DNA from: Candidatus Multivoradales bacterium
GTDB taxonomy: Bacteria; Acidobacteriota; Thermoanaerobaculia; Multivoradales; JAHEKO01
NCBI GenBank assembly: GCA_965223155.1
Contig: CBDCVR010000015.1
Coordinates: 352,001 to 416,000 of the forward strand
Length of the DNA: 64,000 nucleotides
Reading direction: 5' to 3'
Under the pieces are notes generated by a model. The model was not told where the DNA came from and did not search any database. It saw only the letters and a list, made by a program, of their open reading frames with translations. Numbering within the stretch: position 1 is the stretch's first letter; each line of letters opens with the position of its first letter. Below are positions 8,843 through 11,334 of this stretch, in pieces. The position numbers were made by a program, and so were the translations under genes.

Positions 8843-10684
8843 ATGCCCTCGATCCTGGGAATCTCAGCCTTCTACCACGACAGCGCCGCGGCTCTGGTCG
8901 TGGACGGGAAGATCGTGGCCGCGGCCCAGGAGGAGCGGTTCACCCGCAAGAAGCACGACTTCCGCTTCCCTCAGAAGGCGATCGAATACTGTCTCGCCGA
9001 GGCTGGGCTCGAAGCCTCCGAGCTCGACTACGTCGTCTTCTACGACAAGCCGCTGACCAAGTTCGAGCGGCTGCTCGAGACCTATGTCGCCTACGCCCCG
9101 GCCGGGTTCCGTTCGTTCAAGAAGGCGATGCCGCTGTGGCTGAAGGAAAAGCTCTGGATGCCGCGCCAGATGGACAAGGGGCTCGGCAAACAGTTCTCCG
9201 GCCGCTACGTCTTTACCGAGCATCACGAGTCGCACGCGGCGAGTGCGTTTTTCCCTTCGCCCTACGAGGAAGCCGCCATCCTCACGATGGACGGGGTCGG
9301 TGAATGGGCGACGGCGAGCTTCGGCACCGGCCGCGGCAACCGCATCGAGCTCACCCACGAGCTCCACTTCCCCCATTCCCTCGGCCTTCTCTACTCGGCC
9401 TTCACCTACTACACCGGCTTCCGGGTCAACAGCGGCGAGTACAAGCTCATGGGCCTAGCGCCCTACGGCGAGCCCAAGTACGCCGAGGTCATCCGCGAGC
9501 ACTTGATCGACCTGAAGGACGACGGCTCGTTCCGCATGGACATGTCGTACTTCAACTACTGCCAGGGCCTGACCATGACCTCGGCCAAGTTCGACCGACT
9601 CTTCGGCGGCCCGCCGCGCCAGCCCGAGTCCGAGCTGACCCAGCGGGAGATGGATCTGGCCGCTTCGGTCCAGTTGGTGACCGAGGAAATCGTGATGAGC
9701 ATGGCCCGGCACGTCCATCAAACAACCGGCATGCAGAACCTGGTGCTGGCCGGGGGCGTTGCCCTCAACTGCGTCGCCAACGGCAAGCTCCTGCGGGAAG
9801 GGCCGTTCGAGTCGATCTGGATCCAGCCGGCGGCCGGGGACGCTGGCGGCGCGCTCGGAGCGGCCCTCTTCGTCTGGCACCAGCTCCTGGACCAGCCCCG
9901 CTCGATCGCCGGCAAGGACGGCCAGTCCGGATCGCTCCTGGGCCCCGAGTTCACAAACGACGAGATCGAGGCGGTCCTGACCGAGGCCGGGGCCGTCTTC
10001 GAGCGGCTCGACAACGACGACGCCCTCTACGACCGCGTCGCGGGCCTCATGACCGAGGAAAAGGTCGTGGGCTGGTTCGCCGGCCGGATGGAATTCGGGC
10101 CGCGCGCCCTGGGCTGCCGCTCGATCGTCGGCGACGCCAGGAGCCGGGACATGCAGCGGACCATGAACGTCAAGATCAAGTTCCGCGAGTCCTTCCGCCC
10201 CTTCGCCCCGGTGGTGATCTCGGACAACAACCACGAGTACTTCGAGTTCGAAAAGGGCCAGGAGAGCCCCTACATGCTGGTGGTCGCCGACGTGCGCGAC
10301 GGCAAGCGCATCCCGATCCCTGAAGATGCGGCCAGCGCGCAGGGGCTCGACAAGTTGAAGGTCATACGCTCCGAGGTGCCGGCGATCACTCACGTGGACT
10401 ACTCGGCCCGCGTCCAGAGCGTCGACCGCGAGCGGAACCCCCGCTTCCGCGGGCTCCTCGACGCTTTCTACGCCAAGACCGGATGCCCGGTCGCGATCAA
10501 CACCAGCTTCAACATCCGGGGCGAGCCGATCGTCTGCACCCCCGAGGACGCCTACCGGTGTTTCCTCGCCACCGACATGGACGTTCTGGTGCTCGAGAAC
10601 TTCGTCCTGTTGAAGGAAAACCAGCCCGAGCTTCTGAGCCGGCGCGAACGCGACAAGTACATCGCGAGCTTCGATCTGGACTAA
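8843..10684 (+). CDS. O-carbamoyltransferase, NodU/CmcH/SxtI family
   Basis: ILGISAFYHDSAAAL, AQEERFTRKKH, EHHESHAASAF, GGVALNCVANG, EFGPRALG, KFRESFRPFAP, NTSFNIRGEPIV. Confidence 0.95.
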   Translation: MPSILGISAFYHDSAAALVVDGKIVAAAQEERFTRKKHDFRFPQKAIEYCLAEAGLEASELDYVVFYDKPLTKFERLLETYVAYAPAGFRSFKKAMPLWLKEKLWMPRQMDKGLGKQFSGRYVFTEHHESHAASAFFPSPYEEAAILTMDGVGEWATASFGTGRGNRIELTHELHFPHSLGLLYSAFTYYTGFRVNSGEYKLMGLAPYGEPKYAEVIREHLIDLKDDGSFRMDMSYFNYCQGLTMTSAKFDRLFGGPPRQPESELTQREMDLAASVQLVTEEIVMSMARHVHQTTGMQNLVLAGGVALNCVANGKLLREGPFESIWIQPAAGDAGGALGAALFVWHQLLDQPRSIAGKDGQSGSLLGPEFTNDEIEAVLTEAGAVFERLDNDDALYDRVAGLMTEEKVVGWFAGRMEFGPRALGCRSIVGDARSRDMQRTMNVKIKFRESFRPFAPVVISDNNHEYFEFEKGQESPYMLVVADVRDGKRIPIPEDAASAQGLDKLKVIRSEVPAITHVDYSARVQSVDRERNPRFRGLLDAFYAKTGCPVAINTSFNIRGEPIVCTPEDAYRCFLATDMDVLVLENFVLLKENQPELLSRRERDKYIASFDLD

Positions 10685-10694
10685 GAGACCGCCG

Positions 10695-11105
10695 ATGATC
10701 GACATCAACTGGAATCCCACGAAACGCGAGCTCCGGCAGTTCTCGGTCGCACTCCTCGTCGCCTCGGGGCTGGTCGGCGGCCTCCTCTGGTGGCGGCTGG
10801 GACCCAATCCCTGGTCTCAAGCGCTCTGGATCGGCGGCCCGATCGCCTCGGTCATCGGCCTCCTGGCTCCGCCCGCGATCAAGCCCCTCTTTCTGGGCCT
10901 GACCCTTCTGGCCTTCCCCATCGGCCTGGTCATCGGCACGCTCGCCCTGGCTCTCGTCTACTACGGCATGGTCACCCCGATCGGGCTCGTCTTCCGGCTC
11001 TTCGGGCGCGATCTCATGAAGCGCAAGCCCGATCCCGAGGCCACGAGCTACTGGATCCGCCGGCCGTCCCAGGTCCCGGCCAAACGCTACTTCCAGCAGT
11101 TTTAG
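10695..11105 (+). CDS. SxtJ-family membrane protein
   Basis: ELRQF N-terminus, hydrophobic helices, TPIGLVFRLFGRD..K, SYW; directly follows the carbamoyltransferase. Confidence 0.8.
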   Translation: MIDINWNPTKRELRQFSVALLVASGLVGGLLWWRLGPNPWSQALWIGGPIASVIGLLAPPAIKPLFLGLTLLAFPIGLVIGTLALALVYYGMVTPIGLVFRLFGRDLMKRKPDPEATSYWIRRPSQVPAKRYFQQF

Positions 11106-11136
11106 CGCTAGAATCGGCAGCGGGAGAGCGAACACC

Positions 11137-11334
11137 ATGAGCCAATCCGACCGTAGCGATTTCGAGCAAGCAGCCCAAGCCGGACGGCAGAGCTTCCTGT
11201 CCGAGTTCGCCCAGTTCCTGATGGAAAACAAGAAGTGGTGGATGGTCCCGATCCTGGCGGTCCTGCTTCTGGTCGGCGTGCTGCTCATCGCCGGCGGTAG
11301 CGGCGTCGCGCCGTTCATCTACACGCTGTTCTAG
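11137..11334 (+). CDS. DUF5989/SxtK-like small single-TM protein
   Basis: FL.ENKKWWMVPI + one TM helix + GSGVAPFIYTLF; GGAGAG RBS upstream. Confidence 0.85.
   Translation: MSQSDRSDFEQAAQAGRQSFLSEFAQFLMENKKWWMVPILAVLLLVGVLLIAGGSGVAPFIYTLF

Follow-up and report, generated by a model that had tools for sequence, protein, structure and literature searches.

A candidate MBOAT-free tyrosine relay for carbamoyl groups encoded by an sxtI-sxtJ-sxtK cassette in an acidobacterial glycan locus

A stretch of 64,000 nucleotides from a Candidatus Multivoradales bacterium (assembly GCA_965223155.1, contig CBDCVR010000015.1, positions 352,001 to 416,000), hereafter the window, carries three tandem open reading frames (ORFs), all on the plus strand, that encode an SxtI-type O-carbamoyltransferase, an SxtJ-like membrane protein and a 65-residue peptide of the SxtK/DUF5989 family (Table 1). 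This triad is the sxtI-sxtJ-sxtK cassette of saxitoxin gene clusters. We propose that it forms part of a relay that dispenses with a membrane-bound O-acyltransferase (MBOAT), in which the enzyme would pass a carbamoyl group to Tyr62 in the C-terminal tail of SxtK, from there to an outward-facing SGNH protein, and finally to an exported glycan. The core of the proposal, tyrosine as acceptor followed by SGNH-mediated transfer, we consider quite likely; the complete four-part scheme we favor with less assurance. A preliminary description of this DNA had put forward such a relay, and its enzyme-tyrosine-SGNH core is backed by residue invariance, co-occurrence, fusion proteins and a ternary model; the proposal as a whole is supported in part, and its hint that the SxtJ-like protein ends in a similar motif fell away. 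No link between a carbamoyltransferase and a tyrosine shuttle was found in the literature searched, nor any paper naming DUF5989; most subscription papers and supplements were outside the scope of that search and may already name the family.

The triad and its invariant tyrosine

The order of carbamoyltransferase, SxtJ-like protein and 65-residue peptide, first read from the letters, is confirmed by the ORFs and their Pfam matches, and an identical I-J-K order with a DUF5989 peptide is annotated on two plasmids. The triad is present once in the source genome, which is 98.7% complete. In saxitoxin clusters sxtL, encoding a GDSL protein, comes after sxtI-J-K; in the available accounts J and K have no assigned function or are taken to act together with SxtI, and SxtL is put forward as a decarbamoylase, still to be tested (PMC2684587, PMC2679770, PMC12300590, bioRxiv 10.64898/2026.06.11.731795). 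Gene sizes in that block as accessible to us (carbamoyltransferase 1839 bp, SxtJ 405 bp, SxtK 165 bp, GDSL ~1280 bp) match those found here and the first three genes share their order with the window, a comparison of size and order. The block differs from ours in that the window cassette sits in a glycan locus, and no core saxitoxin biosynthesis genes were found among the window ORFs scanned, a genome-wide search not having been made. Lyngbya wollei is described as having a truncated sxtI, no sxtL and no carbamoylated product (PMC3037375), which is compatible with either role for SxtL.

The carbamoyltransferase shows neither a signal peptide nor a transmembrane helix, and it carries the catalytic and metal-binding residues of its family together with the GPRALG motif, a site cited in PMC3037375. 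Its predicted structure (mean predicted local distance difference test, pLDDT, 92.9) matches the fold of GdmN, TobZ, VtdB and NovN with template modelling (TM) scores of ~0.8. Among 76 homologues H127, H131, D150 and D333 are invariant and H12 and D13 nearly so; we take the roles of the catalytic and metal-binding residues to be those of their TobZ counterparts. The enzyme is not a member of the NodU equivalog NF041651, scoring 143 bits where the cut-off is 1000. TobZ, NovN, GdmN, VtdB and NodU, which act directly on small molecules, share its two-domain fold and catalytic residues, whereas the SxtI branch has a lid of its own and always a tyrosine-tailed partner. This lid, a helical hairpin at residues 70-101 of the enzyme model, is built of residues that the SxtI type conserves and that 40 other carbamoyltransferases do not, and its tip is richer in aromatic residues (3.7 vs 1.1) and more positively charged (+0.7 vs -1.4) than that of the soluble three-in-one proteins described below.

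SxtK consists of an amphipathic helix, the pair K32-K33, a single hydrophobic, presumably membrane-spanning helix, a GGSG linker and the tyrosine tail; the lysine pair, single helix, linker and PFIYTLF end noted previously are all in the ORF. DUF5989 is its sole Pfam match (E<=0.001) and its only match in the Atlas; its profile retrieved no PDB sequence at E<=10, and no match to DltX microproteins emerged from these searches. In all 61 phylum loci compared (the window plus 60 chosen for their long flanks from 94 other DUF5989 matches) P38, P59, Y62 and F65 are invariant; of the three fixed positions in FXYXXF the tyrosine and last Phe are retained throughout and the first Phe in 58. All of the best 120 of 857 SxtK homologues contain APFIYTL and 119 of them end in Phe, and at loci selected by enzyme motifs alone the tyrosine is kept in 58 of 59 peptides. 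Tail conservation in the 80 cross-phylum loci considered below is circular, since the search pattern included the tail, and is not part of the main evidence. Of 141 peptides examined, 133 yielded the motif, and in 131 of these Pro38 lies 28-29 residues from the C-terminus; net charge falls from +2.8 on the N-terminal side of the helix to -0.1 over the last 14 residues. An FxYxxF end is borne by 3 of 62,713 stop-to-stop frames of at least 30 residues, the other two being copies of one non-gene-like frame, and this rarity places the SxtK tail beyond chance.

The FXYXXF shuttle is defined in PMC12148441, which names two systems, MBOAT-SGNH and AT3-SGNH, gives FIYANF for PatA and does not contain the word carbamoyl. 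Tyrosine stands at position -4 in all 29 MBOAT tails examined from the same phylum. An alignment of the kind called for in the preliminary description, of DUF5989 with MBOAT tails, extends over 12 columns (hhalign probability 74%). DltX, for its part, ends in FIYNEF. Phe replaces the tail tyrosine in none of the three NodU-linked sets nor in the MBOAT set, while the aromatic and aliphatic residues around it do vary, which implicates the hydroxyl group.

Association with SGNH proteins and fused relatives

The AlgX/AlgJ-type SGNH gene reported near the triad was verified by its ALGX match and its GDS and DxxH motifs, on the opposite strand to the triad, with a GC content of 0.60 vs 0.65 for the triad. 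Its product is a plausible partner and not necessarily the dedicated one, as it is one of eight proteins with an N-terminal anchor among nine SGNH matches in the source genome. The window had been described as lacking an MBOAT, and this extends to the whole genome, where none was found. A concealed MBOAT or AT3 donor for these SGNH proteins was rejected: the cassette contains no AT3 domain, and the lone AT3 gene of the genome is distant from every SGNH gene.

Across 201 genomes of the phylum, DUF5989 was present in 82 and absent from 119 (an unpublished genome, G023, is counted once, as DUF5989-negative and MBOAT-positive, and underlies no other statement); the cassette thus occurs in ~40% of phylum genomes, and it is found in many further phyla. 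An SxtI-type carbamoyltransferase (E<=1e-69) is encoded by 80 of the 82 positive genomes and by none of the 119 negative ones, and the remaining two positives have partial enzyme genes adjoining the peptide. The SGNH subfamily (E<=1e-20), counted with profiles since strict motifs overlooked most genes, is present in 79/82 positive and 4/119 negative genomes, with median copy numbers of 4 and 0 (up to 12 candidates scored per genome), and in 62 of the 65 positive genomes that contributed no sequence to the profile. It was found in 36 of 38 genomes with DUF5989 and no MBOAT and in 1 of 32 with the reverse pattern, and MBOATs are therefore not the explanation of the co-occurrence. Neither an unconserved tail tyrosine or terminal Phe nor a lack of association with SGNH genes, either of which the preliminary description had held to be incompatible with the relay, was encountered, and the same is true of its other sequence-level tests.

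Similar associations are seen at individual loci. In the best 80 of 535 cross-phylum loci, searched with profiles built on other loci, 76 contain SxtJ and 74 the enzyme; 38 have an SGNH gene within 10 kb, 34 of these within 2.5 kb. Forty control loci of lower-scoring carbamoyltransferases, drawn from 187 matches, include three with an SGNH gene and none with SxtJ or a typical peptide (38/80 vs 3/40, Fisher p 5e-6, a value overstated by kinship). A profile-free motif scan found SGNH genes at 30/141 loci and 2/40 controls, and the background in the source genome is 96 of 1,916 20-kb windows (5%). None of the 141 loci examined contains an MBOAT. Eighty metagenome loci chosen by enzyme motifs alone comprise 74 of SxtI type, with two fusions set apart; the peptide was found in 56 (one false match removed; many contigs are short) and an SGNH gene in 35. 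The corresponding SGNH count for the phylum loci, 22/61, is circular, its profile having been seeded on the same loci, and is not main evidence.

Where block I could be found (59 partners; 5 were dropped), 58 of 59 SGNH partners are membrane-anchored; the Ser of block I and the His of block V are present, and 45 of the 58 anchored proteins are more positive on the N-terminal side, as expected for an N-in orientation. Enzyme sequences average 60% identity across phyla and SGNH partners are 12-33% identical to the window SGNH; a constant enzyme with diverse partners fits a fixed peptide acceptor. Typical MBOAT partners score a median of 27 bits against the subfamily profile (20 MBOAT loci), compared with 98 bits for those held-out partners (31) whose scores exceeded the threshold. 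In an exception genome, G048, an SGNH gene of the subfamily lies ~2 kb from a tyrosine-tailed MBOAT, and the same is true of one in G132, suggesting that the subfamily can pair with either donor.

Fused proteins connect the same parts in other ways. Each of the three SGNH-bearing control loci has either a divergent peptide or a tail with tyrosine at -4: L142 encodes a peptide ending in PFIYAHF beside an enzyme with the SxtI-type lid, and in L153 and L179 (and in L178, with no SGNH gene nearby) the tail is on the enzyme itself. In this tail-fused family, whose ends are mostly VYTLL, LYTFV or VYTLF, 119 of the 120 best sequences have tyrosine at -4, the exception being annotated as partial, and a soluble SGNH-like gene comes next in five of six full-length loci. 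A further step is seen in L275 (3861-7205), where SGNH domain, enzyme, linker and tail form one chain of 1,114 residues. It belongs to a family of 182 matches, ~1,100 residues long and ending in SVYVMF, with members in Rubripirellula, Stieleria and Aureliella; of its 120 best sequences (P0241-P0360) 119 have tyrosine at -4, the exception again being partial, and in the full-length set the SGNH domain is of the same type in 112/112 and a membrane-like helix occurs in 1/112. Peptide-linked, divergent, fused and three-in-one enzymes make up one branch separate from tail-less enzymes (SH-aLRT 99, 74 rows; FastTree 1.0, 48 rows), a branch and not a proven clade since the trees are unrooted. That fusions exist without membrane or MBOAT indicates that the tyrosine tail belongs with this enzyme branch and with SGNH. 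No convincing 34-residue soluble tyrosine-tailed peptide was found in the 40 control and 80 metagenome loci.

Some features of the fused proteins are recorded here as observations. The VYTLL-type enzymes of L153 (6887-10767), L179 and L232-L234 are followed by soluble SGNH-like proteins of 670-700 residues, with no Pfam match at 1e-8 in the two examined; L153 and L234 adjoin genes resembling nonribosomal peptide synthetases, and a relay in natural-product tailoring is possible. The 130-residue linker domain of the three-in-one proteins corresponds to no Pfam family in precomputed lists.

A proposed mechanism and its alternatives

A three-chain model of enzyme, SxtJ and SxtK scored 0.67, the best of three controls reaching 0.01; among reference cases, 116 of 157 solved complexes attain the mark against which we read this score, as do 2 of 215 mismatched pairs, counts that apply roughly to three chains with custom alignments. 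At least 85% of contacts were common to the runs, and partner pLDDT was 72-75, nowhere below 71. In the model, lid residues 71-101 and SxtJ residues 81-96 clamp the SxtK helix up to residues 43-47, and SxtK residues 53-61 make confident contacts. These predictions support a ternary membrane complex; PDB searches returned none similar.

The SxtJ-like protein scores 22.1 bits against PF19588, below the cut-off of 24.4, and 154 bits on a profile that includes its own sequence. It comprises a helical hairpin, a helix of 44 residues kinked at a Thr-Pro pair, and a basic tail; in some genomes all that is left is an amphipathic helix of basic character, 18 hydrophobic residues that include the kink, and the basic tail, an architecture that suggests a half-spanning or strongly tilted scaffold. 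We rejected a catalytic role, given the lack of any invariant residue in 102 sequences. Fold searches returned generic helical hairpins (best Z 6.8), which does not imply a novel fold, and a mutual-information analysis of SxtJ with the peptide gave noise (highest z 6.4, shuffles 4.9-6.1). The end RYFQQF is there as described, and we rejected it as a second shuttle: it is not a conserved FxYxxF, with Tyr132 in 57/102 sequences and a terminal Phe or Tyr in 84/102.

In the relay we propose, the cytoplasmic enzyme would make carbamoyl-adenylate from carbamoyl phosphate and ATP, the established chemistry of the family, and, as modelled, would be held at the membrane by contacts of its lid with SxtJ and with the helix of SxtK. 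The acceptor would be Tyr62 in the free SxtK tail and not a sugar, as tail invariance and the fusion proteins suggest. The short, uncharged tail on its fixed-length tether would then pass outward through a membrane patch thinned by the lid and SxtJ, which is the weakest step of the scheme. Finally, by analogy with DltD and PatB, an outward-facing anchored SGNH protein would take the group on its Ser and transfer it to an exported glycan or another extracytoplasmic alcohol. We thus infer tyrosine carbamoylation, transfer through the SGNH Ser, membrane crossing and a glycan acceptor; the position of tail and SGNH domain outside the membrane is suggested by charge bias. Aryl carbamates carbamoylate serine hydrolases, and Ser carbamates hydrolyze slowly, so that transfer would be favored. 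One triad per genome may serve many SGNH proteins, which would set acceptor specificity.

Several observations weigh against this relay. Co-folding of the peptide with the enzyme and SxtJ, as suggested in the preliminary description, produced the complex and left the tyrosine unplaced: residues 62-65 are not confidently positioned and no catalytic residue lies in the interface, so that the model speaks neither for nor against loading. SxtJ lacks both a catalytic residue and a known fold, and a channel is not evident. The likeness of SxtK to MBOAT tails spans just 12 columns, and convergence is possible. The genomes surveyed are related by descent and not independent. No SGNH gene is nearby in 42 of the 80 cross-phylum and 39 of the 61 phylum loci, six long metagenome loci of SxtI type have no peptide within ~5 kb, one metagenome locus in 80 (L268) has an MBOAT in the same cluster, and many DUF5989 loci sit amid housekeeping genes. 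In two loci (L212, 8105-12709; L215, 9096-14899) a divergent MBOAT ending in PFVYVRF is paired with top-scoring SGNH proteins of the DUF5989-linked kind.

An alternative, which we regard as unlikely, is that SxtJ and SxtK tether or activate an enzyme that carbamoylates its substrate directly in the cytoplasm, with the SGNH protein as a decarbamoylase. This is the view of the saxitoxin papers in their available text, where it is given as an untested proposal. It accords with the anchoring contacts of the complex model, in which the tyrosine is not in the active site, and with the hydrolases that are the best PDB sequence matches of the SGNH profile; it leaves unexplained the invariant Tyr(-4) at a free C-terminus in soluble, anchor-free relatives, the fusion of SGNH domain and transferase in one chain, and the near-constant lid across phyla. 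It is less probable still that the tyrosine relay runs entirely in the cytoplasm, with a tilted or re-entrant SxtK helix and with tail and SGNH domain facing inward to modify lipid-linked glycan precursors. The soluble proteins point to chemistry without a membrane, the lid touches the SxtK helix as far as residues 43-47, which would allow a tilt, and 13 of 58 SGNH anchors lack an N-in charge bias; against this, SxtK and the other 45 partners read N-in/C-out by charge, and two SGNH proteins of the same subfamily pair with MBOATs, whose partners face outward. Least probable is an additional carrier, a flipping lipid or small alcohol that receives the carbamoyl group from the enzyme or the peptide, or else a tail that couples enzyme and SGNH protein by non-covalent recognition; this would spare a free C-terminal carboxylate the passage through the bilayer and suits a 136-residue SxtJ with no evident pore, whereas the 61 clustered loci share no recurring flippase or lipid enzyme and the tyrosine, never replaced by Phe, points to its hydroxyl.

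The proposed carbamoyl relay would operate like the DltX/PatA shuttle, yet it falls outside the MBOAT-SGNH family. It shares with DltB-DltX-DltD and with PatA-PatB and AlgI-AlgJ a membrane-tethered C-terminal FXYXXF with an invariant tyrosine, with DltX a separate microprotein, and with MBOAT systems in general an anchored SGNH protein with Ser and His, as far as the available text of PMC12148441 describes them. It differs in having no MBOAT, a soluble ATP-dependent carbamoyltransferase as donor and carbamoyl as the group, in its tail consensus (IYTLF here, IYFQF there) and in an SGNH subfamily distinct from typical MBOAT partners. In AT3-SGNH proteins such as OatA a tyrosine intermediate likewise feeds an SGNH domain (PMC12148441, available part), whereas the cassette contains no AT3 domain. 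By a narrow balance we favor the view that SxtI-J-K with SxtL-like SGNH proteins constitutes a third general route beside these two for carrying an activated group over the bacterial membrane, built on a soluble adenylate-forming enzyme whose lid would dip into the inner leaflet, a crossing tail charged on its tyrosine, and a periplasmic pool of SGNH carbamoyltransferases.

If this is true, the long-orphan SxtJ and DUF5989 families and a large SGNH subfamily would acquire a function, a tyrosine shuttle would be possible without an MBOAT, and carbamoyl-tyrosine would be a natural enzyme intermediate. Widespread extracytoplasmic carbamoylation of surface glycans would be predicted, and many proteins annotated as GDSL lipases, SxtL included, would be mis-annotated transferases, which calls into question the role of decarbamoylase now assigned, as an untested annotation, to SxtL. 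With the soluble three-in-one proteins the chemistry would become accessible in a single purified polypeptide.

Genomic surroundings of the cassette

A large glycan locus makes up the window; it encodes epimerases, glycosyltransferases and sugar transferases, along with ATP-binding cassette (ABC) exporters and three proteins of sulfatase fold. A glycan gene was found at 14 of 60 phylum loci (106 of 187 neighbors scanned), a context that is common and not universal.

Table 1. Positions of the triad and of associated features in the window
Feature	Position	Strand	Remarks
SxtI-type O-carbamoyltransferase (NodU/CmcH/TobZ family)	8843..10684	+	613 aa; PF02543 E 2e-107, PF16861 E 1e-68
Helical lid hairpin of the enzyme	9047..9151	+	Residues 69-103; at the membrane, predicted to lie against the DUF5989 helix
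SxtJ-like membrane protein, predicted scaffold	10695..11105	+	136 aa; PF19588 E 2.6e-4
SxtK/DUF5989 microprotein	11137..11334	+	65 aa; DUF5989 E 5.5e-20
PFIYTLF tail	11311..11331	+	Tyr62 codon 11320-11322; proposed carbamoyl carrier
Membrane-anchored SGNH protein (SxtL-like), candidate acceptor-side transferase	4489..5733	-	ALGX E 1.3e-12; GDS, DxxH motifs
Membrane-anchored sulfatase-fold gene	5821..7869	-	Same orientation as the SGNH gene and 5′ of it
Second membrane-anchored sulfatase-fold gene	2533..4416	+	After two NAD-dependent sugar epimerases (477-2422)
Third sulfatase-fold gene	31609-34356		
ABC exporter	11383..13599	-	Convergent on the triad

Arrangements of the cassette vary between loci. 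DUF5989 stands alone amid unrelated genes in L005, L006, L044, L052, L059, L077, L078, L099 and L102, and for the first five of these the matching enzyme sits elsewhere in the genome. A variant cassette with a conserved S-adenosylmethionine (SAM) methyltransferase, an SGNH protein and the enzyme is found in L039, L041, L043, L045, L053 and L142; four of these transcribe the peptide divergently, and SxtJ is short (70-95 residues) at the loci where it was found. A second, different carbamoyltransferase directly adjoins the triad in L010 and L034.

Within the window, the first two sulfatase-fold genes encode N-terminal membrane segments and show a weak likeness to phosphoethanolamine transferases, and they are possibly outer-face transferases for another group; another SGNH gene of the source genome (C15:919621) also adjoins a sulfatase-fold gene. 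Just 5′ of the triad lies the remnant of a gene for a surface protein with TSP3 repeats (7880-8729, plus strand), frame-split near 8480-8518. A groEL-groES pair (15330-17617, minus strand) is located within the locus, which is broken up at 20413-24835 by IS110 and Mutator transposases and an integrase-like frame. A long gene starting at ~18860 and two beta-rich genes (21796-22632 and 34433-36463) have no Pfam match.

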